A stretch of 64,000 bases of DNA from an uncultured Pseudomonadales bacterium (GCA_964620965.1 CAZUHV010000003.1:12777-76776), one strand, 5' to 3'; positions 9,125-44,347 are shown, numbered from the stretch's first letter. Program-made: numbers and translations. The notes: generated from the sequence alone by a model not told the origin.

Positions 9125-11458
9125 CTATAAATTGCTTCTGCTCTGAATTTCCGCCTCAACAACATCTCTATCTTTACCATACTTGAGTCTTGAAAGCTCT
9201 TTAATCATTTCCGCTTGTTTAGGATTCATACGTGCATTGATAGAATCCATGTCTTTAAGTAACGACATACTAAATGGAGGAACTGGCTCATTCTTAACAA
9301 TCGTCTTTATATACACATGAAATTTCTCGATATTTGTTAAGTCACCTTCATTGAAAGTTGGCGAGAACTCATGTTGCAAAAAGTTCGCATCTGGAACACC
9401 AACACGAAAGGCAATCATAGTACCAACGTTACCAAACACAGCATTCTTCACCTCTTCATCAATCTGACTCACAAACTGATTTGCAACAATCAAATTAAGA
9501 CGATATTTACGAGCCTCAGACAAAATAACAGCGAAGTCCTCTGTTGCATAGTTCTGGAACTCGTCGACATACAAATAAAAGTCTTTACGATCTGCCATAG
9601 CCATATCTTGACGCGCCATAGCAGCAGTAAGCACTTTCGGAACAAGGATCAAACCTAAAAATTTAGCATCTTCTTCTCCAAGAATACCTTTTGAAAGGTT
9701 ACATAAAATAATTTTTTGTTCGTCCATTGCTTTTCTAATATTAAACGCACTTTCTGGCTGACCAATAATGTTACGCATTGTTTTATTCGTAACAAATCGA
9801 CCAAACTTAGAAACAATGTAGTCCAAAACCTCAGACTTGTGAAAGTCGGAAGTTTGAGCAATCTGGTCTGTCCAGTATCTTCGAACAACTGGGTCTTTTA
9901 CTAAAGGAAGCATCTCATCAACATATTTACTATCGGTTAAAATACGCACCAACTCAATAAAAGTACTGCCTTTTTTGTACATGATAGTAAGCATTGCATT
10001 ACGAATTGCATGCTCAAAACGAGGACCAATAATACCAGTTCTGTGCGGATCATACAGCTTGTACATCAATCCAATAATAGAACCTACAACAAAGTGGCGC
10101 TGTTCTTCGGAATCAGCTTCCATCATGTTTAAACCCATTGGACGATCCAAATCTGAAGGATTAAAGTAAATCACATCATCTGCACGCTCAGGTGGCATTA
10201 ATTGCAAGATATCTTCAATAAACTCACCATGTGGGTCAATTGCACAAACACCTTTGCCATTTTCAATATCTTGCAGAATCATCTCTTTAAGAAACTCAGA
10301 CTTACCTGTACCCGTTTTTCCAATAATGTACATGTGTCTTCTTCTATCATCTTCTCCAATAAAGACTTCACGAACCTCTCCTCTATAGGTAGATTTTCCA
10401 AGATGTAGTCCTTCTTTAGGAATTTTGTTAGGAGCAGGAGCATTTTTTGCGTTCAGCCAACGAATGTGATGCGTTTCAACAGTTTTGTTTGGTAAATGAA
10501 AAATAGTTGCAAGCTCTTCGGTATTAAGAACAAACGTGTCCTTATTAAACATTGGCATATATCGATACAAAAAGTCGATCATAAAAAGATGTTTAAAAAA
10601 TATCAGTTTTGTCTGCTTAAATGAGTTATATGCACCTGTAAACTGAGCAAATGCACCTTTTATATTGTTCAAGTGTGAATCTGCAATATATTCTTCTTTT
10701 GCTGATACAACAACTCTAATTGAAACTCTAAAACCTGGTTTCTCAGCCTTTTGACCAATGACTTCCATCTCTTTTGGATCATGAGAATATGTCGCCTTAT
10801 TTGGGTCAGCCTCACGTTTCTTTTGTGATGAAACATATGACCTACCTTGATTCTGCCATCTTTTTCCTTCTGGTTGCATCAAAATTTGCAAAATCGCACC
10901 CTCACCAGGACCCATTTTAGAAAGTGCAGAAGTAATAGCATTTAAACCATCCACCGGTAAATCTTTGTATGTTTTAATTGGATAATACGAGGCTCTATCT
11001 AAAGATAGCGAAGTAAATGCAACTTTACCCTTTTTGTTAAAAATATTAACTTCGTCGACTTCTTTAATCTCTGCATTTGGATATGACCCATGAATCTGTT
11101 TTTCTACTAAATCACGAATTCTTCGAGGGCAGTTCAGATAAAACGCAATATCTTCTTCAAGTGCAACAATTTCTAAAGAAAACAGATCCTCAGCCTTTGT
11201 GAATGCAAAAAACCCTGTTTTTTTGAGCGAATATAGACCGGCAAACATCTGTTCTGCTGAGTCAATCTTTGTCTCATTGTCTTTTGGAACTCTGATAAGC
11301 AATGTGACAAATTCAAGTGCAGTGTTTTCTTTGTTTCTATATTTATATTTTTGAAACAACATGTAACAAAAAACAATAAAGATCGCTAAAAGAAGCAATA
11401 ATAGTATTGCTGAACTAAAATACTGAACTGCTATAGCAAAAAAATCCTGTTCAAGCAT
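9125..11458 (-). CDS. T4SS ATPase of the FtsK/HerA superfamily (VirB4/TraC/TrbE-like or VirD4/TraG-like), N-terminal TM segment plus C-terminal NTPase
   Basis: 777-aa ORF. TM segment AILLLLLLAIFIVFCYMLF lies at the N-terminus. Walker A is RHMYIIGKTGTGKSEFL, followed by ...GVCAIDPHGE. Walker B region is FYLYVDEFQNY...ARKYRLNLIVANQ. An N-terminal domain of about 350 aa precedes the NTPase, which fits VirB4 topology better than VirD4. Confidence 0.65.
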   Translation of the reverse strand: MLEQDFFAIAVQYFSSAILLLLLLAIFIVFCYMLFQKYKYRNKENTALEFVTLLIRVPKDNETKIDSAEQMFAGLYSLKKTGFFAFTKAEDLFSLEIVALEEDIAFYLNCPRRIRDLVEKQIHGSYPNAEIKEVDEVNIFNKKGKVAFTSLSLDRASYYPIKTYKDLPVDGLNAITSALSKMGPGEGAILQILMQPEGKRWQNQGRSYVSSQKKREADPNKATYSHDPKEMEVIGQKAEKPGFRVSIRVVVSAKEEYIADSHLNNIKGAFAQFTGAYNSFKQTKLIFFKHLFMIDFLYRYMPMFNKDTFVLNTEELATIFHLPNKTVETHHIRWLNAKNAPAPNKIPKEGLHLGKSTYRGEVREVFIGEDDRRRHMYIIGKTGTGKSEFLKEMILQDIENGKGVCAIDPHGEFIEDILQLMPPERADDVIYFNPSDLDRPMGLNMMEADSEEQRHFVVGSIIGLMYKLYDPHRTGIIGPRFEHAIRNAMLTIMYKKGSTFIELVRILTDSKYVDEMLPLVKDPVVRRYWTDQIAQTSDFHKSEVLDYIVSKFGRFVTNKTMRNIIGQPESAFNIRKAMDEQKIILCNLSKGILGEEDAKFLGLILVPKVLTAAMARQDMAMADRKDFYLYVDEFQNYATEDFAVILSEARKYRLNLIVANQFVSQIDEEVKNAVFGNVGTMIAFRVGVPDANFLQHEFSPTFNEGDLTNIEKFHVYIKTIVKNEPVPPFSMSLLKDMDSINARMNPKQAEMIKELSRLKYGKDRDVVEAEIQSRSNL

Positions 11459-12089
11459 TATTTTCTTCCTGTTTATAGATTACTTTTCCAGTAAACATTC
11501 TAATAATCTTATGGCTAAACTCAACTAACCACCTAAAACTGTATTTTGGAGATTTTTTTGCACCTTCTTGTTCTTCTGCTTCCGTAATAGGCAAAACAAT
11601 AACAGGCCTACTTGGATATTGATTTGTAGGTACTTCACTAGTGCCATCTGCAATTACAACCTCTGTTGGAGCAGTATCGTGATGATCTTCGACCCGTTGC
11701 AAAAAGCTCTCAACTTCTACTGGAATCTCTGGATTTTTTTCTGTTTCGATTGCTTGAATTCCACCACCGGCATCTATAATCTGAGCATCTGCAGATTTAC
11801 CTGTTTCCACACGCTCTTTTGCAGTTCTGGCTCCACCTTGTTGTGGATTCAGTGTATCTGTTGCTTGATCAACAGCCTGAACAACTCCATGTGGAACTGT
11901 GTTTTGAATTTCATCCAAAACAGACTCAAACGTATCTAGTTTTTGAGTAGTATCATCTGTCTGAGTTGGATCACTAATAACTTGCCCCCGTTGAGCTTGA
12001 GAAATCTTCGAACCACTAAAAAGCTGGCTCACTCCAGAGAGAACTTGTCCTTTTTGAACTTGTTGTTGATTTTGGGTTTGGTCGTTCAT
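11451..12089 (-). CDS. Hypothetical Gln/Thr-rich protein, co-operonic with the T4SS ATPase
   Basis: 212-aa ORF overlapping the ATPase start by 8 nt, with a low-complexity Q-rich N-terminus. No family recognised. Confidence 0.45.
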   Translation of the reverse strand: MNDQTQNQQQVQKGQVLSGVSQLFSGSKISQAQRGQVISDPTQTDDTTQKLDTFESVLDEIQNTVPHGVVQAVDQATDTLNPQQGGARTAKERVETGKSADAQIIDAGGGIQAIETEKNPEIPVEVESFLQRVEDHHDTAPTEVVIADGTSEVPTNQYPSRPVIVLPITEAEEQEGAKKSPKYSFRWLVEFSHKIIRMFTGKVIYKQEENNA

Positions 12090-12112
12090 TAGCTAGTACA
12101 ATCATAGCATTT

Positions 12113-12685
12113 TTATTGCACTAATTGAACTACATCACCAGGTTGTATATTGAATTTTTCTGCATCACCAGCATTGACTTCTAAAACCATATCAGCATCT
12201 TGATTTGGAGAGTATGTTTCTAATCGATTGTCTGGCGTATCCTGTGGAGGTTTAGGAACATTTTTTGAAATTGCGACTACAATATTATTGTTTATCCAGA
12301 TCATGTCTAAGTCAAACTGCATGTCTTTCATCCAAAAGTATCGGTTTTCGCTTGTTGGAAAAATAAAAAGCATGCCTTCTGCACCGATTTCACTTCGCCC
12401 TGATAAACCCTGAGTAGTTGAATGAGCTGTATTTACAACTTCCACTGTAAGGATTCTTTCTTCTGGTATTGCTGTAAGTAGTTCTTCTGCGTCTGTTGCC
12501 TCTGCTATTTGCAGGGCTTCTAATTCTTTATTTGAGTTAAAAACGATTTCTACAATCTCTCTATCTTGCAAATCAGAAAAACGTCTTTGCTCTTCATCAA
12601 AAAGTGAGTTGCCATTTTTTTGTAAAATAAAATAACAAGTTATAGAAATCGCTAGCAAGAATATAAAAATAACTTTTTTAATCAT
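12113..12685 (-). CDS. DUF192-family protein (COG1430-like), secreted
   Basis: N-terminal signal-like segment. C-terminal pattern ...DMIWINNNIVVAI.....LEVNAGDAEKFNIQPGDVV is typical of DUF192. Confidence 0.5.
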   Translation of the reverse strand: MIKKVIFIFLLAISITCYFILQKNGNSLFDEEQRRFSDLQDREIVEIVFNSNKELEALQIAEATDAEELLTAIPEERILTVEVVNTAHSTTQGLSGRSEIGAEGMLFIFPTSENRYFWMKDMQFDLDMIWINNNIVVAISKNVPKPPQDTPDNRLETYSPNQDADMVLEVNAGDAEKFNIQPGDVVQLVQ

Positions 12686-13500
12686 GTTTTTGTATTATAC
12701 GAAATAATTCTTTCAAACCATATGTGGAAATATTTATGAAATAAATACAAAAAACAAACTAGAGCAATCCCCAGTAAAAATAACTGGTTAAAACCCAGTA
12801 AACCAAATAATACAACTTGTTTATCCAATCTTAAAAAGTCAAGAAAAAAACGAAGCAACGAATAATAAAAAACATAGCTAGTAAAAAGCTTTCCTGTACC
12901 AATTTTTGGGAGCCTTGATTTTTTTAAAAGCAAATAAACCATACTTGCAAAAATACCTGTGCCAATCATTTCATAAAAAAACAGTGGATGATAATAGGAA
13001 AACTGCTGATAACTAGGTAACCGATGCTCAGAATCTATATATATTTTAAAAAACCCGTTTGTTGGAGACCCATATAACTCTTGGTTAAAATAATTTCCCC
13101 AACGTCCAATTGCCTGCCCAACAGGTAATCCAAAAATCGTATAATCTAGAAGTTTCAAAATTTCTTGTTTCTTTTTTTGTAACTCAATTTTTCGCAATTC
13201 TTGAAACAAAAAAAATGAAAAAACTAAACCAAACACTCCTCCAATTACTCCTCCAATAATACTTAAACCTCCATTCCAAATTTGTAGTGTCCCCATTAAG
13301 TTCTCTTCATATAAATGGTAATCTGTGATAACATGCCACAAACGCGCCCCTAGAACTGCAAACAAAAAAGAAAGTAAAGCAACTTTGCTAAAAAATTTCT
13401 GTAAGAGAGGCTCTTTTTCTGTTTGCTTTTCTATAAGTGAAAAACCAACAACTAAGGCGACTCCGATTATCAAACCATACAAATTAAATTGTAATAACAT
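12682..13500 (-). CDS. lgt: Prolipoprotein diacylglyceryl transferase
   Basis: Polytopic membrane protein carrying the Lgt signature GRWGNYFNQELYG. Confidence 0.8.
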   Translation of the reverse strand: MLLQFNLYGLIIGVALVVGFSLIEKQTEKEPLLQKFFSKVALLSFLFAVLGARLWHVITDYHLYEENLMGTLQIWNGGLSIIGGVIGGVFGLVFSFFLFQELRKIELQKKKQEILKLLDYTIFGLPVGQAIGRWGNYFNQELYGSPTNGFFKIYIDSEHRLPSYQQFSYYHPLFFYEMIGTGIFASMVYLLLKKSRLPKIGTGKLFTSYVFYYSLLRFFLDFLRLDKQVVLFGLLGFNQLFLLGIALVCFLYLFHKYFHIWFERIISYNTKT

Positions 13501-13980
13501 TTATCTTCCTAAGAAAATAACTAAAAATGCAAATAAAACTGTTGCTGCAATAAAAACTGTAGTAAAAATGGCATGTTCATCTTGAGTAATGTCACGCTTT
13601 AACTGAGACAAATACCTTTTCTGAAATCCTTGCAAATTATTTCTAAAACTAAAAAATTCAAGTGAAAGAATCGAGATAATTCCCAAAAACATTCCAACTC
13701 CCATTGCACTTCCCGTAGAAGTCAACAAAAATAGTCCAAGTGGCGGGAGTGAAAGTAAAAATAAAAATGAACGTGTGACTAACCTTTTTTCCTCTGGATC
13801 ATAATACTTATAAGCATACTTTTCGTCAGCTTCTAAAAGCGCCATACCTAAAAAAATACCAACACTAAAAAATAAGACACTAAAATAGTTAACTGCCTTA
13901 CCAAAATACGCAGAAACTAAAAATAAAACTGACAAGCTAATTAAAATACCGATTTTTCCGAACAAATTATTCTTTTGCAT
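13501..13980 (-). CDS. Hypothetical integral membrane protein (about 4 TM segments)
   Basis: 159-aa hydrophobic ORF. No family recognised. Confidence 0.4.
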   Translation of the reverse strand: MQKNNLFGKIGILISLSVLFLVSAYFGKAVNYFSVLFFSVGIFLGMALLEADEKYAYKYYDPEEKRLVTRSFLFLLSLPPLGLFLLTSTGSAMGVGMFLGIISILSLEFFSFRNNLQGFQKRYLSQLKRDITQDEHAIFTTVFIAATVLFAFLVIFLGR

Positions 13981-15127
13981 ATTTGTATTGTATTATCTTT
14001 CGAACTGAATTATCAACAAAAGGTTTAAATACCGGATTCGTATCATATTCAGTAACTAAACTAGAAACAATTGCTTGCAAATCTTCTTGAGTAACGGACT
14101 GTCCGTACAAGAGCACATCATTTCCTGCCAAAACTGCTTCTTTAGAAATCGTTGCCAAATCCTTTGGCACTTTTGGATTTTCTATATCATATGCCGCTGC
14201 TGCCATCTCTAGAGCATCAGTAAATACAAGCACATTTGGATATGCTTTATTAAGCTCTGAAACACAATATGGACTGACAGAACAAGGAATATCTTTATCT
14301 TGTGTTATTACTCCGGCATGTGAAGTCATAACTCCAATTTTTTCATTTTGATCAATTATATATTTATACAACTTTACATCATTTTCTAGAACATCTACAA
14401 AATCAAAGCTTGTGTGTAAGTCTTTTGTAGTCAAACCAATGCCAGGAAAATGTTTTAGAACCGGAAGAACTCCAATTCTACTAAATATAGTTGTAAAGTC
14501 CATTCCTCTATCTGCAACAATTGGGTATGAAGTTGTTGAACAAACTCTATCTTTTAAAATTTTATTGTTGCCAACGTCAACTACTGGTCCTAAAACAACA
14601 TCAACCCCGGCATCCTTGAGTTCATACGCACTCCTTTTGAGCTCTGCTTGTCTTTCTTTTTGGTCAAGTTCACAAATTTTTTGCCAAGAATCAAGTTGTG
14701 AAAATCCTTCGCCAGAAAGTCTTTGCACACTGCCTCCCTCATGGTCAACTGCAATCCAGGGTTCCAAACCATAAACTACGTTCTTTTTGAGTTGAGTAAT
14801 CGTGCTTGTTGCACGATTCATTGATATCTCAGTTCCAAATAAAGTGAAAAAACCATATTTTATTTCTGGCACTGTTGCAAGTTCTTCTGAATCCATGTCA
14901 ATAACATATGGTGCAGCAATCATTTGTAATATTTTTTCTTGAGTAGTTAGTGAAGCAAAAATATCCGTATTAGTTTTTTTTGTTTCATCCATTGCCATTT
15001 GATTTTCTGAATCTGTTATACGCTCCGATTCAGGAATTTCAAAAGGACGATACACATAGTTGTAACCCAATATTACAGTTGCAATTAAAAGTAAAACTAT
15101 AAAAAAGTACTGTCTTATTTTTTTCAT
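13967..15127 (-). CDS. Glycoside hydrolase family 3 N-terminal-domain protein (NagZ-like beta-N-acetylhexosaminidase)
   Basis: N-terminal signal anchor and GH3 motifs ...AVDHEGGSVQRL... and KHFPGIGLTTKD. Confidence 0.7.
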   Translation of the reverse strand: MKKIRQYFFIVLLLIATVILGYNYVYRPFEIPESERITDSENQMAMDETKKTNTDIFASLTTQEKILQMIAAPYVIDMDSEELATVPEIKYGFFTLFGTEISMNRATSTITQLKKNVVYGLEPWIAVDHEGGSVQRLSGEGFSQLDSWQKICELDQKERQAELKRSAYELKDAGVDVVLGPVVDVGNNKILKDRVCSTTSYPIVADRGMDFTTIFSRIGVLPVLKHFPGIGLTTKDLHTSFDFVDVLENDVKLYKYIIDQNEKIGVMTSHAGVITQDKDIPCSVSPYCVSELNKAYPNVLVFTDALEMAAAAYDIENPKVPKDLATISKEAVLAGNDVLLYGQSVTQEDLQAIVSSLVTEYDTNPVFKPFVDNSVRKIIQYKYAKE

Positions 15128-15426
15128 TTTTTCTTTTCTGCGTTAATCTGCTTTACTTTCCACATAAATAATTTTGCTTTACTTTTCGCATTGTTTGCAT
15201 CCTTAACAAATGACAGAGATCTTTCTAAGACTGCTCTATCAACTGTTTTCGCCATTTTAATGTATAAACTTTTATGCTTCAAGTCGTTAAGCTCTACGGC
15301 CAATCTATATCCAAAGTCTTGAAATTCCTGAGTAATATATCCACCCTTATCATCAAGTTGGTACGAAGCAAATAAATCTCCCATGTTCTGAAATGATTGC
15401 TTCTTCTTTTTTGTATCATCTGTCAT
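15124..15426 (-). CDS. Hypothetical small basic protein
   Basis: 100-aa ORF that overlaps both neighbouring genes by 4 and 11 nt. Confidence 0.35.
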   Translation of the reverse strand: MTDDTKKKKQSFQNMGDLFASYQLDDKGGYITQEFQDFGYRLAVELNDLKHKSLYIKMAKTVDRAVLERSLSFVKDANNAKSKAKLFMWKVKQINAEKKK

Positions 15427-16645
15427 ATTTTGAATCTTTCATTAATAGACCGACTAAAACACCAAAACTTGCAAGAACATAGAGCGATTTCCATCCCGAA
15501 AAGAAAATAAAAAATAGCCCAACACAAGACCAAAATATAACAGTTGCAATATTCAAAGTCATTTCTCTGTAAATAAAAAACGAATCTGCAGAATGGCCCT
15601 TACCTCGCTTCATGAACATCGTATCAAAATAGACGTTATACACATTCGAAATTAACTTATCAAACATATCTATAAAAGCGATTCCCCAAGTAGTTACAAC
15701 TTGAGTTCTCAGTACAGTAATTATGGATAGAAAACCACCTGAAAGGTAAAATGGCTTCTTACTTTTTTTGTGATGATCAAAATAGTTACCAGCAAAATAT
15801 GTAAAAAGTAGAGCTAAAAAGAGCGACGCAGTATACAAATATCCAACTTTGTCTATTGAACCCAATAGCAGAAAAATGTAAAGTGGCCACAGATAAATTG
15901 CTGCATCATACACATATTTTCCAGCAAAAGATGCACTTAAAGTAATAAACCGAGTTTCTTTAATCCAACTAAAAAATTCTTTATATGAAACTGAGTTTTT
16001 GACAGTATCTATATCCATATGCATCGCCAAAAAACTTGAAATTAAAGTAAGTACTAATCCAATTAAAAACAATACTTCTATACCTGCTAAATATGCAATT
16101 ACACCACTCACTGCAGGGGAAACAACTGCAACTATCTGTAAAAGTGTATACAAAAATCCGACATCTTTACCCATATTACTCTTTTTGGAAATTTTACTTA
16201 AAATGGAATAGTAACCGCCCCAAAACAGTTGTGCATTTATAGCATCTAACAAAGCTGCTGGTATCAAAAATAGTGCAGAATTTCTTGCAAAAAACATTAG
16301 CATAAAGTATAAGGCTCTTAGCAAAAATGAAAAAACAAAACTTTTTTGATATCCAATTTTTCTAAAAACTATACCACTTGGAACACCCATCAAAAAGCTT
16401 ACTATCCCAACAACTATGTAATAAAATGCCAAAGTAAGCATCCCTGTTTGGAATGATGTGAACGGTAAAAATTGCAGATGAACAGTAGTAGACCCAACAC
16501 TAAACAAAAACACTGGCAAAAAAAACATTGCCATTTTATTAACAAGATCTCTAATAACTCTGATTCCATAAAGCAATCTAAAATTCTTTGAATCATCAAA
16601 AGTAATATGAGGCAAATGAAGGTGGTAATCCTTAATTCTAAACAT
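15416..16645 (-). CDS. MFS-type transporter (about 12 TM segments)
   Basis: 409-aa polytopic ORF with two six-helix halves. Family assignment is by architecture only. Confidence 0.55.
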   Translation of the reverse strand: MFRIKDYHLHLPHITFDDSKNFRLLYGIRVIRDLVNKMAMFFLPVFLFSVGSTTVHLQFLPFTSFQTGMLTLAFYYIVVGIVSFLMGVPSGIVFRKIGYQKSFVFSFLLRALYFMLMFFARNSALFLIPAALLDAINAQLFWGGYYSILSKISKKSNMGKDVGFLYTLLQIVAVVSPAVSGVIAYLAGIEVLFLIGLVLTLISSFLAMHMDIDTVKNSVSYKEFFSWIKETRFITLSASFAGKYVYDAAIYLWPLYIFLLLGSIDKVGYLYTASLFLALLFTYFAGNYFDHHKKSKKPFYLSGGFLSIITVLRTQVVTTWGIAFIDMFDKLISNVYNVYFDTMFMKRGKGHSADSFFIYREMTLNIATVIFWSCVGLFFIFFSGWKSLYVLASFGVLVGLLMKDSKYDR

Positions 16646-16652
16646 AAAAAAC

Positions 16653-17198
16653 CTAAACTCTTTGTATCAACTCTTTTACAACATCTATCTTGACTCTGTT
16701 AAAAACTTCCATCTCTTCTGGAGAAAATTTTTCTAACACATATGTTTGTGGAGGAAGCGTTCTATCACCTTCTCTGGTATCTACACCAACCCTTATATGC
16801 CAAAAATTTTGAGTTCCTAAGTTTTGGTATAAAGAAAGCAATCCATTGTGTCCTTTTGGGCCAATTCCATACTGAATCTTAAAAGTACCAAGTGGAATAT
16901 CTAAATCATCATGCACCACGAAAAGGTTATGATATTCACCTGTTTTTTTTGCTTCAACATCCATTTTATAAAATGAAAGAATACTCTGAACTGCTCTACC
17001 AGAATCATTCATAAAGGTCTGGGGTTTCACAAAAATTGCATCCTTAACTTTGCAAGTATCAGAAAAAACTTTTTTATTATGAGTAAACTCTGGGCATTCC
17101 AGAACTTTGCTTAAGTTGTCTAGAACCATAAATCCCGCATTATGTCTGGTAAGTTCATACCTACTACCTGGATTACCTAAGCCAACAAAAATATTCAT
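16653..17198 (-). CDS. pth: Peptidyl-tRNA hydrolase
   Basis: N-terminus MNIFVGLGNPGSRYELTRHNAGFMVLD matches Pth. Confidence 0.85.
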   Translation of the reverse strand: MNIFVGLGNPGSRYELTRHNAGFMVLDNLSKVLECPEFTHNKKVFSDTCKVKDAIFVKPQTFMNDSGRAVQSILSFYKMDVEAKKTGEYHNLFVVHDDLDIPLGTFKIQYGIGPKGHNGLLSLYQNLGTQNFWHIRVGVDTREGDRTLPPQTYVLEKFSPEEMEVFNRVKIDVVKELIQRV

Positions 17199-27978: not shown

Positions 27979-29187
27979 ATGAAGAAAATACTACATATTT
28001 TTATTGCTTTTATTTTTCTTAGTTTTGCATTTTTTGGTGGAACAAAACAGGCGTATGCACAATCTGCTTGTACTTCGGCAATCAGAGCAAGCTTTAGTAT
28101 GAGTAACTGGGCTCCTTCATATGGAGGATCTTTTTTGGCAGGAGTAGATGCTTCCCCAGTAAACCCAACATTTTCTGGTTTAACTGCTAACAGCCAGTAC
28201 GTATTAACTTGTCAAAAAAAACAACTGTTTGGTTGGAGTTCTAATTTGGCCTCTTGGAATTTTTCAGCTAATGCAAGTGGAACTGGGACTGTTAATATCT
28301 CTAACAACAGTGTCTGTTGGGAAGACAAAGATGATTATCGGTTAATGATTGTTATCCAGTCAAGCGGTGCCAGTTGTCTAGTCCAAGAATATGAGGTTCT
28401 TGATCAATCAGAGGGAGTACGGTGTGTTACTAAAAGTGCAACAAACGCAAGCGGTCAATCTGGATGTTTTGAACAAAATGAACAAATTAATTGGAGTTTT
28501 GAAGTCGTTAATGGAGACGGAACTCCATATACAGACGAATTAATGGTGAGAACAACAAATGTTTATGGTGGAGGACTTGGGGCAGGCAGGATATTCAGTA
28601 ACCCTTCTGGGGTCATTACCGGCACTGATACTGCGATAGAGCTATATGAAGATGTCCCTGAAGATTACAACACAAGTATTGTTTACACAGTGTTTGCTGA
28701 AGCGGATATTCAAAAACAAATTGCAAGTTGTACTTTATATGCAGGGAATGTAAAACAGGACATGTGTACAGAGGATGACTATGAAAATGGGGCCACTCCT
28801 GGAGTAGACACCTTTTCACTTTGTGACCAAATTCCTGAACAATTTGAGGAACAAAAAACAAGCTGTAAAATCTGTACTGAAGGTGAGGGTGAAAACGAAG
28901 CTAACAAAGGTGTCTGGACAGCAATAGGCTGTATAAAAAGAGAACCTCAAGCGATTATGCAAAGACTTATTACAGTTGGACTAGGTATTTCTGGAGGTGT
29001 CGCCCTTCTCACTTTCCTTGCTGCTGGATTCATCTTTAGTACCTCACAAGGAGATCCAAAAGCTTATGGAAAAGCCAAAGAAATGATGACCGCCGCTATT
29101 GTAGGAATAATTTTTGTAATATTTTCAGTAACAATACTACAATTCATAGGATATGAGGTACTCAAAATACCTGGATTTGGTGGATAA
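27979..29187 (+). CDS. Secreted Cys-rich protein with a C-terminal T4SS-pilin-like (VirB2/TrbC-type, CPR pilin family) two-helix domain
   Basis: The signal peptide ends AYAQ. An ectodomain of about 300 aa follows. The C-terminus ...GISGGVALLTFLAAGFIFSTSQGDPKAYGKAKEMMTAAIVGIIFVIFSVTIL matches the conserved core of the pilin paralogs at 40.7-44.3 kb. Confidence 0.6.
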   Translation: MKKILHIFIAFIFLSFAFFGGTKQAYAQSACTSAIRASFSMSNWAPSYGGSFLAGVDASPVNPTFSGLTANSQYVLTCQKKQLFGWSSNLASWNFSANASGTGTVNISNNSVCWEDKDDYRLMIVIQSSGASCLVQEYEVLDQSEGVRCVTKSATNASGQSGCFEQNEQINWSFEVVNGDGTPYTDELMVRTTNVYGGGLGAGRIFSNPSGVITGTDTAIELYEDVPEDYNTSIVYTVFAEADIQKQIASCTLYAGNVKQDMCTEDDYENGATPGVDTFSLCDQIPEQFEEQKTSCKICTEGEGENEANKGVWTAIGCIKREPQAIMQRLITVGLGISGGVALLTFLAAGFIFSTSQGDPKAYGKAKEMMTAAIVGIIFVIFSVTILQFIGYEVLKIPGFGG

Positions 29188-40672: not shown

Positions 40673-41047
40673 ATGTTTTTTGGAATAATACCTACAGTAT
40701 TTGCTCAAGAGGAAGTCAGCCCTTGTGGTGCTGGCAACGGAGGTATTAATCTTGGAAACTGTCTCAAACTTTCTGATAGTACTAGAGTTAGTGCTACCTA
40801 CGATACACCAGCATTTTTAGTTAATCTTATTATTAGTAACTTATTTGTTGTTGCTGGAGTAATTTTTTTCTTAATGTTAATTGTTGCAGGATTCAAGTTT
40901 ATTACTGGTGGCCAAAAAGGTGCTGAAGAAGCAAAAAATATTATAACTACTTCTCTAATCGGTTTTATTATTATGTTTGCAGCCTACTGGATTATCCAAA
41001 TTGTTGCATTGTTAACTGGTATTACAATTCCTGGAGTAAGCACCTAA
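40673..41047 (+). CDS. T4SS pilin-like protein, paralog 1 of 8
   Basis: Short leader MFFGIIPTVFAQ. Core LFVVAGVIFFLMLIVAGFKFITGGQKGAEEAKNIITTSLIGFIIMFAAYW. C-terminus GITIPG. Confidence 0.6.
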   Translation: MFFGIIPTVFAQEEVSPCGAGNGGINLGNCLKLSDSTRVSATYDTPAFLVNLIISNLFVVAGVIFFLMLIVAGFKFITGGQKGAEEAKNIITTSLIGFIIMFAAYWIIQIVALLTGITIPGVST

Positions 41048-41048
41048 T

Positions 41049-41456
41049 ATGACATTTTTTAAAATTCCAACCGTCTACGCTCAAACTGATCCCAACGAAC
41101 TTGTCGGAGATTTGGAAATTCCTAAGGGTGTAGATCTCATAAACCAAGATGCTGGTGGAATTGGAGTAATTTTATTTATTTCAAACATGATCAAGTTTGT
41201 CATTATTCTTGGAGGAATCTGGGCATTAATTAACATTATTTTTGCTGCATTTGCATATCTTACAGGAGGTGGGAAAGCAGACTCACACACTAAAGTTAAA
41301 GATAGATTTACTATGAGTATTATCGGGCTTATCTTAATGATTGTAGCGTATACAGTCGCTGCACTGGTTGGACAAATTTTCTATGGAGATCCAAACTTTA
41401 TTTTAAACCCAACATTAGAAGCTATTGCACAACCAACACCGACCCCAACACCATAA
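41049..41456 (+). CDS. T4SS pilin-like protein, paralog 2 of 8
   Basis: Leader MTFFKIPTVYAQ. Core ...ILGGIWALINIIFAAFAYLTGGGKADSHTKVKDRFTMSIIGLILMIVAYT...FYGDPNFILNPTLEA. C-terminus is a PT tail. Confidence 0.6.
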   Translation: MTFFKIPTVYAQTDPNELVGDLEIPKGVDLINQDAGGIGVILFISNMIKFVIILGGIWALINIIFAAFAYLTGGGKADSHTKVKDRFTMSIIGLILMIVAYTVAALVGQIFYGDPNFILNPTLEAIAQPTPTPTP

Positions 41457-41457
41457 T

Positions 41458-42057
41458 ATGAAAGTACTACTAATAAAAACACTTAGAAACTTTATACTTA
41501 CCTTCTTTACAGGACTTCTGTTTGCAGGAGTATTTTTTTCGGCAACTCTTATTTCTCCAAAACCTACTCTTGCTGCTTGCAGATATGCAGGCCAATGTGA
41601 TGATAATAGTATTTGTAGATGCCGAGAAGATTTAAATCCAATCGCTTGTTACTACATGGTTCGGTATGGAGATCCAGAGTCTGCATTAGTTCATAGTGAC
41701 GAAGCTTGTGGTTCTGCAATTATCGGTGGGGTTGAACCACCAGATGCAGTTGCAGCAATTAACCAGCAATCTGGCGGAGATATTGGCTTAATTTTCTTTA
41801 TTTCCAGAATAATAAATTTTGCCAATATTATAGCTGGGATCTTGGTCATGATTAATTTTGTCTACTCAGGATTTCTGTATGTTACAGGGGCTGGAAATGC
41901 TTCAAATATGTCTAAAATTAACGAAAGAATGATGTGGAGTGTTGTTGGGATATTAATGATCGTTGGATCTTATACACTTGCAGCAATTTTTGGATTGGTA
42001 TTCTACGGAGACCCAACATTTGTTATCAACCCAACTTTAACAGGAGCACTTAACTAA
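41458..42057 (+). CDS. T4SS pilin-like protein, paralog 3 of 8, with a Cys-rich N-terminal insertion
   Basis: The start is taken at MKVLLIKT; the ORF track starts at 41425, overlapping the previous gene. A 6-Cys segment CRYAGQCDDNSICRCREDLNPIACYY...EACGS precedes the pilin core. The C-terminus FYGDPTFVINPTLTG is shared with paralog 2. Confidence 0.55.
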   Translation: MKVLLIKTLRNFILTFFTGLLFAGVFFSATLISPKPTLAACRYAGQCDDNSICRCREDLNPIACYYMVRYGDPESALVHSDEACGSAIIGGVEPPDAVAAINQQSGGDIGLIFFISRIINFANIIAGILVMINFVYSGFLYVTGAGNASNMSKINERMMWSVVGILMIVGSYTLAAIFGLVFYGDPTFVINPTLTGALN

Positions 42058-42087
42058 TTACTTGGTATATAATAGAAAAGAATACAT

Positions 42088-42465
42088 ATGATACTACCTA
42101 CACTTATCGCACAATTTGGGGAAGGATTTAAATCTCAATCCCCTCTTACAGACGGAGCAGAACTAGATCCAGGAAAAAACCTTGAACTTATTCTTTCTAA
42201 TGTCTTTGGATTTTTCACTATTATTGGAGGAATTTTCTTTATCGTATACTTTTTAATTGCAGCAATGGAATGGATTACCTCTGGTGGTGATTCTGGGAAA
42301 CTAACCAACGCAAGAAACAAAATGATGCAAGGAATTCTTGGTTTAGTTATTTTGGTTGCTGCATATGGAATACTTGGAATCATTGGTAGCTTAATTGGTA
42401 TCAACCTACTAACTCCTGCAGCACTTTTGGATACAATCACTCCAGGACAAGGAGGAGGAAACTAA
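42088..42465 (+). CDS. T4SS pilin-like protein, paralog 4 of 8
   Basis: Leader MILPTLIAQ. Core IGGIFFIVYFLIAAMEWITSGGDSGKLTNARNKMMQGILGLVILVAAY. Confidence 0.65.
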   Translation: MILPTLIAQFGEGFKSQSPLTDGAELDPGKNLELILSNVFGFFTIIGGIFFIVYFLIAAMEWITSGGDSGKLTNARNKMMQGILGLVILVAAYGILGIIGSLIGINLLTPAALLDTITPGQGGGN

Positions 42466-42470
42466 ACCCT

Positions 42471-42905
42471 ATGAAAATAACAAAAAAAATATCAGCTCTC
42501 GCACTATCTGCAACAACATTTTTAGCCATTACCCTCCCTGTTTTTGCACAAACCGAAGGCACCGGAATTACTAATCCTGTGATTGGAGGACTTGGAGATA
42601 ATCCAGAAACAGCTGCCACTGGAGAACTAGCAACAAACTATTTCGTAGATATTTGGAATACACTTATTAGTATAGGTGGATTGGTAGTCATTGTTATGTT
42701 CCTTTGGGGAGCTCTCGAATGGATTACCGCAGGCGGGGATTCTGGAAAAATAGAAAAAGCTCGAAACAAAATTACTCAAGCTATCATAGGTTTAGTTATT
42801 TTAGTTAGCTCATTTGTAATTCTTGGCTTTATCAGTCAAGTGTTCTTTGGAGATGAGTTCTCTATCTTGAATTTAACATTCACAAGGCCAGGAGGAACTG
42901 AATAA
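42471..42905 (+). CDS. T4SS pilin-like protein, paralog 5 of 8
   Basis: The signal peptide ends PVFAQ. Core WGALEWITAGGDSGKIEKARNKITQAIIGLVILVSSF. Confidence 0.7.
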   Translation: MKITKKISALALSATTFLAITLPVFAQTEGTGITNPVIGGLGDNPETAATGELATNYFVDIWNTLISIGGLVVIVMFLWGALEWITAGGDSGKIEKARNKITQAIIGLVILVSSFVILGFISQVFFGDEFSILNLTFTRPGGTE

Positions 42906-43342
42906 TGAAAAAATTACTTATAGCTTTTTTAATTGGTTTAGGTATTTTCTTTAGCTATACAACGTTGGCAAGCCACTCTTATTCACAAGTATTTGCACAA
43001 GCAGATGTCCAACTTGATTTTGGGGGCATTGCAAAAGATAAAGAAGTCATTGGCACTGCAGATTATAACCCAGCAGACGGTGGGGCTGGTTTTGGAGCTC
43101 TAATTGGAAGAATTTTAAACATCGTAATAGTAATCGCAGCACTCATGCTATTCTTAATGCTTCTTTGGGGTGGCTTTGAATGGATTACCTCTGGTGGTGA
43201 TAAAGGTAAAGTTGAAAAAGCAAGAAACAGAATCACTCAGTCAATTATTGGAATGATTGTTTTGGCGGCAACTATTGCAATTTTTGCAATACTACAAACA
43301 GCACTTGGATTTGAAGTGCTTACCTTTACTGCAGGAGCATAA
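42905..43342 (+). CDS. T4SS pilin-like protein, paralog 6 of 8
   Basis: The signal peptide ends QVFAQ. Core WGGFEWITSGGDKGKVEKARNRITQSIIGMIVLAATIA. TAATG overlap with paralog 5. Confidence 0.7.
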   Translation: MKKLLIAFLIGLGIFFSYTTLASHSYSQVFAQADVQLDFGGIAKDKEVIGTADYNPADGGAGFGALIGRILNIVIVIAALMLFLMLLWGGFEWITSGGDKGKVEKARNRITQSIIGMIVLAATIAIFAILQTALGFEVLTFTAGA

Positions 43343-43385
43343 ATACTAAAACATAGCGCCTTATTTAAAATAAAAAATTACAAAC

Positions 43386-43414
43386 TTGCAGTATGTATCA
43401 AGTACAAGTATAAT
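43386..43414 (+). promoter_or_regulatory. Near-consensus sigma-70-type promoter (TTGCAG-17 nt-TATAAT) upstream of pilin paralog 7
   Basis: TTGCAG at 43386-43391, a 17-nt spacer, then TATAAT at 43409-43414. The RBS AGGAAA lies about 8 nt before the ATG at 43463. Confidence 0.45.
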
Positions 43415-43462
43415 TAAATAATAAGTAGTCAGTAATAAACTGAAAAGTAATAAAGGAAACAT

Positions 43463-43840
43463 ATGAGAAACAAACTCAATGGTTTAGCACTAAGTGCAGC
43501 AGCATTTGTCACTGCAGTTCCAGCTGTGTTTGCACAAAACACAAATGTTAGTGACATCGAAACTCCAGACTTCTTCTTTACAGATGTTGGTGTTTTAATC
43601 AACAAGGCACTTAACTTCGTTATGGTTCTTGGTGCTTTATTAGTATTCATGTACCTCATCTGGGGTGGTATTGAATGGATTACCTCTGGTGGTGATAAAG
43701 GTAAGACAGAGTCTGCACGTAACAAGATTACAGCTGCAGTTCTCGGTTTGATCGTCCTCGCAGCTGCATGGGCAATCTTAGGATTAGTCCTCAAATTCTT
43801 AGGTGCAGGAGACTTGAACTCATTAATCGATCAACTTTAA
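43463..43840 (+). CDS. T4SS pilin-like protein, paralog 7 of 8 (candidate major pilin)
   Basis: The signal peptide ends AVFAQ. Core WGGIEWITSGGDKGKTESARNKITAAVLGLIVLAAAWA. Codon usage is distinct and C-ending-rich. The gene has its own promoter and a strong terminator. Confidence 0.7.
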   Translation: MRNKLNGLALSAAAFVTAVPAVFAQNTNVSDIETPDFFFTDVGVLINKALNFVMVLGALLVFMYLIWGGIEWITSGGDKGKTESARNKITAAVLGLIVLAAAWAILGLVLKFLGAGDLNSLIDQL

Positions 43841-43867
43841 TACAAATTAATTTTTGATTTTAAAAAA

Positions 43868-43890
43868 GCCCCTCTTTTGAGGGGCTTTTT
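43868..43890 (+). terminator. Rho-independent terminator after pilin paralog 7
   Basis: gcccctc-tttt-gaggggc hairpin followed by ttttt. Confidence 0.65.
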
Positions 43891-43924
43891 GGTGTAAAAA
43901 ATAATGATATAATCAACTCTAGAT

Positions 43925-44347
43925 ATGATACTAGAAAAAAAATTAAATAAACTCGAAAAACTTTTTACTGTTATAGTTGCGTATCTATACTCAACCTCTC
44001 CTGCGTTTGCACAAACTGTATCTTGGTCTGGAGTCTGTGTTGGTGGAGCTGGAAACGATGTTGCAACTATTCAAGGACTTGAATGTTTAATTGCAAATGT
44101 CTTTACAGTTATCATTACCCTTATTGGTCTAGCCGCATTTGTAATGCTTATTGTTGGCTCAGTTAGATGGCTCATGTCTGGCGGAAATTCTTCTGCTTTA
44201 GATAAAGCAAGAAGTACTATGACATACGCAATCATTGGAATTGTTGTTGCACTCAGTGCCTTTATTGTCTTAAACCTGATTTCTGGATTTACCGGAGTAG
44301 ATACTATTCAAGAATTTAGAATTCCTACTTCAGACGAAGGCTTGTAA
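43925..44347 (+). CDS. T4SS pilin-like protein, paralog 8 of 8
   Basis: The signal peptide ends PAFAQ. A Cys pair (GVCVGG...GLEC) precedes core LIGLAAFVMLIVGSVRWLMSGGNSSALDKARSTMTYAIIGIVVALSAF. Confidence 0.6.
   Translation: MILEKKLNKLEKLFTVIVAYLYSTSPAFAQTVSWSGVCVGGAGNDVATIQGLECLIANVFTVIITLIGLAAFVMLIVGSVRWLMSGGNSSALDKARSTMTYAIIGIVVALSAFIVLNLISGFTGVDTIQEFRIPTSDEGL

Follow-up and report, generated by a model that had tools for sequence, protein, structure and literature searches.

A phylum-wide DUF8128 ATPase of Patescibacteria with a VirD4-type motor: candidate coupling ATPase of a T4SS-like machine, or independent translocase

The 64,000-nt stretch of DNA analysed in this work (the window; positions 12777-76776 of CAZUHV010000003.1, assembly GCA_964620965.1, filed under an uncultured Pseudomonadales bacterium) is low in GC (~35%), and encodes on its minus strand a 777-aa ATPase related to the ATPases of type IV secretion systems (T4SS). 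A preliminary description of the window had placed an open reading frame (ORF) for an ATPase of the FtsK/HerA superfamily, with an N-terminal transmembrane (TM) segment and Walker motifs, at positions 9125-11458; the coordinates are correct, and the motifs have been located. The gene is made up as follows.

9125-11458, minus strand: DUF8128 plus VirD4-type P-loop ATPase, 777 aa, a main-clade ATPase of Patescibacteria resembling type IV coupling proteins (T4CPs) (six-frame ORF list, Pfam/NCBIfam, PF26449 on close homologues, AlphaFold2 (AF2) model)
11342-11443, minus strand: N-terminal TM anchor, residues ~6-39 (hydropathy, AF2 helix H6-39, orthologues)
10424-11326, minus strand: DUF8128 N-domain, residues ~45-345, alpha/beta, similar to the VirB4 N-terminal domain by predicted structure alone
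9128-10411, minus strand: motor domain, residues ~350-777 (motifs, invariant residues, secondary structure, superposition on TrwB)
10298-10321, minus strand: Walker A, residues 380-387
9548-9580, minus strand: Walker B, residues 627-637
9734-10111, minus strand: all-alpha insertion, residues ~450-575, at the probable site of a T4CP all-alpha domain

The motifs GKTGTGKS, DPHGE, DEFQNY and ARKYRLN start at residues 380, 408, 632 and 649, respectively. K386 of Walker A, D632/E633 of Walker B, R650 and Q661 do not vary among 22 family sequences from across the phylum and, as far as sequence can tell, the gene is intact and all catalytic residues are conserved. Residues ~6-39 form the sole strongly hydrophobic segment in the hydropathy profile and one helix in the AF2 model, and a comparable N-terminal segment is found in 75 of 77 orthologues. 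The basic stretch KYKYRNK directly follows the anchor, and the bulk of the protein is on this ground predicted to be cytoplasmic.

The comparison of VirB4 and VirD4 hidden Markov models (HMMs) proposed in the preliminary description favours VirD4. In Pfam, DUF87 (34.8 bits) and TrwB_AAD_bind (29.8 bits vs a cut-off of 20.5) match the protein around the P-loop, TraG-D_C weakly. The top NCBIfam matches are TraD and the VirD4-like CD1115 family, positions 20-355 of the 442 of the latter aligning with residues 369-684; the protein scores far under every equivalog cut-off, and is thus the equivalog of no named T4CP. VirB4_CagE (TIGR00929) reaches 18.4 bits vs a cut-off of 643, and CagE_TrbE_VirB (PF03135) gives no match on the protein. 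Orthologues are matched by T4SS-DNA_transf over 300 residues at 38.3, 30.7 and 26.0 bits (cut-off 20.1), the first of them (L066) over model positions 35-357/468, and one (L038) by TrwB_AAD_bind over 11-314/387. A family profile of 22 diverse members, searched against all PDB sequences, retrieves TrwB first (8e-7) and DotL (7e-6), with HerA far behind, and no VirB4 or FtsK chain at E<=10. Other branches of the superfamily fit poorly. FtsK_SpoIIIE (PF01580) reaches 17.7 bits vs a cut-off of 24 and matches the P-loop alone, and neither a gamma domain nor a multi-TM (4TM) N-terminus gives a match; the HerA equivalog NF040819 scores 19.2 bits vs a cut-off of 970, the generic DUF87 central domain is matched, and no NurA-like neighbour was seen in the Pfam scan or in the neighbour clustering. 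By these comparisons the motor is of the VirD4/T4CP type, within the FtsK/HerA superfamily; the term T4SS ATPase is for this gene a statement of homology. The DUF8128 label was taken from close homologues, all of which, including a 99%-identical protein, carry the precomputed PF26449 on the N-terminal ~300 residues.

The predicted structure adds a second affinity. The full-length AF2 model has a pLDDT of 81, the model of the N-domain a pLDDT of 82.5 and a pTM of 0.84. The best Foldseek match of the full-length model is TrwK/VirB4 (E 9e-15, ~850 aligned columns), and the top 14 matches of the N-domain alone are all TrwK/VirB4 chains (E 2e-7, query-normalised TM-score 0.42-0.49), not HerA. The fold predicted for the N-domain resembles that of the VirB4 N-terminal domain.

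T4CPs of the VirD4/TrwB/TraD kind, including DotL and Cag-beta, share with the window ATPase an N-terminal membrane anchor followed by a P-loop motor; TrwB and DotL are its best profile matches, and TrwB_AAD_bind, T4SS-DNA_transf and TraG-D_C match either the protein or its orthologues. The motor superposes on TrwB (target-normalised TM-score 0.57-0.63, root-mean-square deviation ~6 Å, ~430 aligned columns), and in the AF2 model a helical insertion at residues ~450-575 lies between motor strands, apparently where T4CPs carry their all-alpha domain. However, a ~300-aa DUF8128 domain, missing in classical T4CPs, separates anchor and motor. Classical T4CPs usually have two TM helices, the window ATPase one. 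The gene, moreover, is chromosomal, vertically inherited, distant from T4SS and relaxase genes, and far more conserved than an accessory conjugation gene.

A T4SS-like cluster is present in the window, 30-50 kb from the ATPase gene.

40673-44347, plus strand: T4SS_pilin (VirB2-like) gene array (PF18895), part of a machine that the ATPase might serve in trans
62967-64000 (runs off the window end), plus strand: PrgI/VirB3-like gene, 392 aa when complete (PrgI Pfam match and context)

The PrgI match falls under the Pfam cut-off (23.7 vs 27 bits), but the call is supported by the pilin array nearby and by the ORF next to it. The latter could be read on L087, a public contig with the same genes which reaches ~2 kb past nt 64000. 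There (L087, 10750-12754) the complete PrgI-like protein combines PrgI with a C-terminal CarboxypepD_reg domain, and the next ORF, at least 264 aa long and cut by the contig end, matches VirB4_plasma (8.7e-8), TrsD (7e-4) and the CD1110 VirB4-like family (6e-3). The VirB4 that the preliminary description expected downstream of the PrgI/VirB3-like gene is thus represented by a TrsD/VirB4-N-like ORF, and a split TrsD plus VirB4 arrangement is suggested, as in SEML1_0009/0008 of Southlakia epibionticum.

It had been left open whether the ATPase, ~51 kb from the PrgI-like gene, is a second, coupling-protein-like enzyme or a VirB4, the main ATPase of the T4SS, moved out of its cluster. As in VirB4/TrwK of plasmid R388, an N-domain precedes the motor, the size is alike (~780-800 aa), and the best structural matches of full-length model and N-domain are VirB4 chains. 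Yet VirB4 is not approached by sequence, either through the two VirB4 models or through the family profile; the gene is not beside VirB3/PrgI; and, since a TrsD/VirB4-N-like ORF succeeds PrgI in the same genome, the product must be regarded as a second ATPase. The proposed relocation is hence hardly credible, and the coupling-protein-like alternative is the one that agrees with the VirD4-type HMM matches. A sequence link between DUF8128 and the N-terminus of VirB4/TrsD was also tried and rejected: hhalign gives a probability of 1% to DUF8128 and the VirB4-N-like ORF of the cluster, and an NCBIfam search of three N-domains gave no match.

The cluster has further features. The pilin array comprises seven to nine small VirB2-like paralogues, and the three tested all match PF18895. 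A 402-aa protein encoded at 27979-29187 (plus strand), ~12 kb from the array, carries a pilin domain at the C-terminus alone. A 1,481-aa protein encoded at 57755-62200 (plus strand), just upstream of the Big_5 and PrgI-like genes, ends in a CHAP domain (a weak match, 22.6 bits), and could provide the T4SS-like cluster with its cell-wall hydrolase.

The ATPase belongs to a large family. At E<=1e-5 it is matched by more than 7,000 clusters (90% identity), at E<1e-30 by 5,755 representatives (50% identity). GTDB species genomes were scanned as well, and yielded full-length relatives, 38-75% identical over residues ~10-777, in Microgenomatia, Dojkabacteria/WWE3, Saccharimonadia, Berkelbacteria, ABY1, Paceibacteria and Gracilibacteria; all major classes of Patescibacteria are represented. 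The ATPases of three relatives are 76%, 75% and 72% identical to that of the window, and the shared neighbours 32-67%: Pth 40-50%, Lgt 38-42%, DNA ligase 50%, ABC ATPase 59-66%, MacB 51-56%, and hyp100, a hypothetical protein, 58-67%. In all three comparisons the ATPase is the most conserved gene of the neighbourhood. Sequence comparison depicts it as a gene under strong purifying selection and vertically inherited.

Unbiased clustering of the neighbourhoods singled out as recurrent neighbours DnaX (15 loci), a XerC/D-type recombinase (13), DivIC (9), RNR, CysRS, ComM and GyrB. In a membrane-anchored member of the FtsK-HerA superfamily, company of this sort could hint at a functional analogue of FtsK, acting in chromosome segregation or dimer resolution at division. 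Each of these neighbours, however, recurs within one class, which denotes an inherited gene order; the FtsK_SpoIIIE score, the family profile and the missing gamma and 4TM domains speak against it; and S. epibionticum has a separate canonical FtsK, SEML1_0096 (alpha, gamma and 4TM domains), which is essential (PMC10633639 Table S1). On account of the single-class neighbours and of the canonical FtsK of ML1 the FtsK-like role was rejected; it is largely refuted for Saccharimonadia, and very improbable on the whole.

A small gene upstream of the ATPase behaves differently.

11451-12089, minus strand: Q-rich ORF, 212 aa (six-frame ORF list)

The Q-rich ORF overlaps the start of the ATPase by 8 nt, and its product has a low-complexity N-terminal part, a conserved C-terminal region of ~135 aa, and no TM segment. 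A small gene on the same strand lies immediately upstream of the ATPase in 65 of 79 loci, and in 47 of these it overlaps the ATPase gene or is at most 30 nt away. This is the only phylum-wide neighbour of the ATPase. The families found at this position are class-specific, and homologous within Microgenomatia (hhalign 99.8%). Homology of the partners between classes was rejected (hhalign <1%), position alone being conserved. The small upstream gene is fast-evolving and translationally coupled to the ATPase.

In three genomes two DUF8128 ATPases, in tandem or a few kb apart, have been identified (L036, 1128-3587 and 3587-6163; L042, 9938-12505 and 15639-18566; L044, 9741-12113 and 13972-17193). 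Both copies carry N-domain and motor. A neighbour-joining tree places the second copies in a basal clade of their own, and the window protein in the main clade, which roughly tracks class taxonomy and includes the partner-associated proteins of Saccharimonadia. Variants of 1,400-2,000 aa with long C-terminal extensions, and forms of ~1,450 aa, also exist in the family (P0138, P0145, P0156, P0163; P0197, P0203, P0210, P0214); the ~1,450-aa variants share with the window protein the motor alone (query ~315-774, ~50% identity), which is C-terminal to an unrelated region of ~980 aa.

The distinction between the two clades bears on what has been published. Quinonero-Coronel et al. (2025, PMC12102498) reported VirB4 in 2,417 of 3,035 Patescibacteria genomes, and 5,713 VirD4-like T4CP homologues in 2,918 of them, about 2 copies per genome; in Microgenomatia, only 22.6% of the VirB3 homologues were near virB4; the t4cp homologue of S. 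epibionticum ML1 was called non-essential, and exaptation "cannot be ruled out". According to Wang et al. (2023, PMC10633639) the T4SS of S. epibionticum is essential, and no coupling or relaxase protein is recognisable. Two candidates emerge from Table S1 of the latter paper. SEML1_0293, a "T4SS DNA-binding domain" protein of 921 aa, is classified NE/NE/NE. SEML1_0142, a "TraM recognition domain" protein of 1,019 aa, core and Patescibacteria-enriched, is classified ES/ES/ES, transposon insertions dropping from 114 in the input to 9-11 after selection; it is preceded by SEML1_0141, a 139-aa hypothetical (GD/ES/ES, insertions from 9 to 0). No paper on DUF8128 or SEML1_0142 turned up in searches of the literature.

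Saccharimonadia orthologues of the window ATPase measure 935-1,108 aa in the loci examined, and reside in a five-gene arrangement: a gene of ~120 aa, the 137-148 aa partner and the ATPase on the plus strand, followed by genes of 186-194 aa and ~500-630 aa on the minus strand. SEML1_0140-0144 match this arrangement in sizes and strands. In one such orthologue (L056) no T4SS Pfam family other than TraG-D_C exceeds its cut-off, and this accounts for the PGAP name. The Cell supplement uses the name "ATP-binding protein", which close homologues also bear, and no Southlakia entry is present among the best 120 matches of the homologue search. Synteny, size, naming and tree clade make the identification of SEML1_0142 as the S. 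epibionticum orthologue a strong, if circumstantial, inference. If it is right, the orthologue of the window gene is essential, and the published non-essential t4cp fits the paralogue SEML1_0293, not SEML1_0142. The T4CP homologues catalogued in the two papers are the same kind of gene, present phylum-wide and far from virB4; there, however, the two paralogous clades are pooled, and neither the DUF8128/VirB4-like N-domain nor the small upstream partner is described.

Homologues are not confined to the phylum. By tblastn, full-length homologues (23-28% identity) have been identified both on 322 plasmids of Bacillus, Streptomyces, Staphylococcus, Clostridium, haloarchaea and Sulfolobus and in 54 phage records, among which are SPO1-like phages and Bacillus phage G (gp156). 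The B. subtilis plasmid CP120602.1 (65 kb; L084, 8830-11571) encodes a 913-aa homologue (BLASTP 9e-55 over residues 93-774, N-domain covered) just upstream of conjugation genes of the TcpC, TcpD and TcpE families; the Halorubrum megaplasmid pHAR01 (L085, 8854-16077) encodes one of 2,407 aa. The N-domain HMM built in this work recovers both (9e-42 and 3e-30), as well as the paralogues. These DUF87/DUF8128 ATPases of Bacillus plasmids, haloarchaeal megaplasmids and large Bacillus phages are therefore alike over the full length, N-domain included. In contrast to the window protein, they lack the N-terminal TM anchor, reside on mobile elements, and include some with very long extensions. The plasmids are typed mostly as non-mobilizable. 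Such a distribution marks DUF8128 as a module of older standing among the mobile elements of monoderms and archaea, which agrees with the published derivation of the Patescibacteria T4SS from monoderm conjugation systems.

The remaining genes of the minus-strand run have to be considered because the preliminary description regarded the coupling of the ATPase to lgt as noteworthy.

12113-12685, minus strand: DUF192 gene (PF02643, E 2.3e-25)
12682-13500, minus strand: lgt (PF01790, E 1.9e-45; TIGR00544, 135.8 bits vs a cut-off of 118.9)
13501-17198, minus strand: rest of the packed run, TM159, GH3, hyp100, MFS and pth (ORFs, Pfam; same order in the relative L001 and on the P0019 contig)

The minus-strand operon of four genes previously outlined does end with the ATPase, but the packed co-directional run counts nine (pth-MFS-hyp100-GH3-TM159-lgt-DUF192-Qrich-ATPase), the junctions measuring, from pth to ATPase, 7, -11, -4, -14, 0, -4, +23 and -8 nt. 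Overlaps of 4-8 nt, as then described, hold for lgt/DUF192 (4 nt) and Q-rich/ATPase (8 nt); DUF192 and the Q-rich ORF are separated by a 23-nt gap. Since a scan for promoter and terminator consensus sequences gave nothing above shuffled expectation, co-transcription is inferred from gene packing alone.

Close relatives repeat the order pth...GH3-TM-lgt-DUF192-partner-ATPase, with a convergent HlyD/ABC/MacB block, and a role of the ATPase in lipoprotein maturation, for instance in the export or assembly of lipoproteins, could be imagined from its place in a run which contains lgt and DUF192 and is kept in these genomes. A tblastn re-check showed, however, that the adjacency is confined to relatives with at least 72% ATPase identity (L001/L002, L004 and L005), and is gone from L006 onward, at identities of 62% or less, and in all other classes. 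When 83 loci were searched with iterated HMMs, Lgt proved to adjoin the ATPase in 3 of them, DUF192 in 6, and the Q-rich family in 12. The same run, moreover, contains pth, MFS and GH3, housekeeping genes unrelated to lipoproteins. DUF192 and lgt are lineage-specific co-directional neighbours, not part of the ATPase system; the coupling was rejected as local synteny and carries no functional meaning, and a tie to lipoprotein maturation is extremely unlikely.

Other observations concern these neighbours. Lgt and DUF192, separate genes in the window, are fused into a single 446-aa ORF (PF01790 plus PF02643) in L001 (7868-9208) and L002 (5285-6625), a Rosetta-stone hint that DUF192 may work with Lgt in a way that does not involve the ATPase. 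At the N-terminus of the window DUF192 protein is a hydrophobic segment which ends in ...LAISITC. The hyp100 gene (15124-15426, minus strand) encodes a basic protein of 100 aa without Pfam match; within the run only the ATPase is more conserved.

What the ATPase does is best discussed starting from its relatives. Like TrwB, DotL and VirB4, it may form a membrane-associated hexameric ring, in which ATP would drive the hand-over of a polymer (DNA or unfolded protein) to a channel in the membrane. The likeliest channel would be the pilin/PrgI/TrsD-VirB4 T4SS-like machine 30-50 kb away, the cluster of which has no coupling protein, and the small upstream protein, here the product of the Q-rich ORF, could act as adaptor or docking subunit. 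The notion that the ATPase is encoded in trans to couple or energise a T4SS-like machine, with the small protein as adaptor, is in our judgement about evenly poised between right and wrong. It is favoured by the presumed S. epibionticum pair SEML1_0141/0142, essential as are the T4SS genes, by the Bacillus plasmid homologue adjoining TcpC/TcpD/TcpE, and by the S. epibionticum T4SS, which lacks a recognisable coupling protein (PMC10633639).

Several points weigh against this assignment. Pilin genes were found within 10 kb of the ATPase in 1 of 79 loci by an HMM built from the window pilin paralogues, PrgI and the VirB4-N-like ORF in 0 of 79; similarly, 148 of the 5,713 catalogued T4CP-like genes lie near virB4, hardly any relaxases are known there (109 homologues, in 103 genomes out of 3,035; PMC12102498), and at least 501 draft genomes, as calculated from the same counts, have a T4CP-like gene but no detected VirB4. 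The similarity to the VirB4 N-terminal domain is structural alone (TM-score 0.42-0.49) and comes from a predicted model. The orthology of SEML1_0142 was drawn from synteny, size, naming and tree, and the tree is a neighbour-joining one without support values, with three paralogue sequences. Hexamer formation, substrate and partner binding are attributed by homology. Of the two tests set out in the preliminary description, the best matches are of T4SS type, in favour of a T4SS ATPase, and relatives show almost no genomic association with T4SS genes, which tells against it.

The same data can be accommodated by supposing that the main-clade ATPase and its small partner constitute a membrane machine of their own, serving for instance to take up or export nucleic acids or proteins, which arose from a conjugative coupling ATPase, has ceased to work with VirB4/VirB6, and is essential irrespective of the T4SS. 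Linkage to T4SS genes is missing both in the 79 loci and in the published survey; T4CP-like genes are more widespread than VirB4 (96% vs 80% of genomes); the ATPase is far more conserved than its surroundings, whereas T4SS components such as the VirB6 of Microgenomatia are extremely diverged (PMC12102498). Anchorless homologues in Bacillus phages and on mostly non-mobilizable plasmids imply that the family is not tied to conjugation, and exaptation was left open by the authors of the survey. On the other hand, no alternative channel or partner is conserved alongside the ATPase, its recurrent neighbours being single-class except for the small upstream gene. The absence of VirB4 from draft genomes (>50% complete) may reflect incompleteness or divergence. 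T4CP genes are often distant from virB4 in ordinary conjugative systems too (PMC12102498). A translocase independent of the T4SS is the main rival reading, less likely than the trans-encoded coupling ATPase but far from negligible.

That T4CP-like genes reside far from virB4 in Patescibacteria was already known; the family has been catalogued, and the window gene is an ordinary member of it. Added here are the distinction of the paralogues, the likelihood that the gene is essential, the resemblance of its N-domain to that of VirB4, and the conservation of a small partner. Taken together, and tentatively, since we give it somewhat less than an even chance, the data may depict an essential phylum-wide machine, made of the main-clade DUF8128 ATPase and a fast-evolving partner, which was overlooked by pooling it with a dispensable paralogue. 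It would then be the coupling ATPase that the essential T4SS-like apparatus is missing, a hybrid of VirB4 fold and VirD4 motor, or else an independent translocase on which these reduced cells rely. The Patescibacteria, ultrasmall and dependent on host cells, account for a large part of the diversity of bacteria, and the route by which material is obtained from the host is the wider question. In the single species examined so far the T4SS-like machine is essential, and the lack of a recognisable coupling ATPase in its cluster has been used as an argument against DNA transport. If the view proposed is correct, whether the ATPase is the missing component or a separate essential translocase, the published impression of a dispensable T4CP homologue would be corrected, and the DUF8128 ATPase would become a defined, testable target to explain the epibiotic lifestyle.

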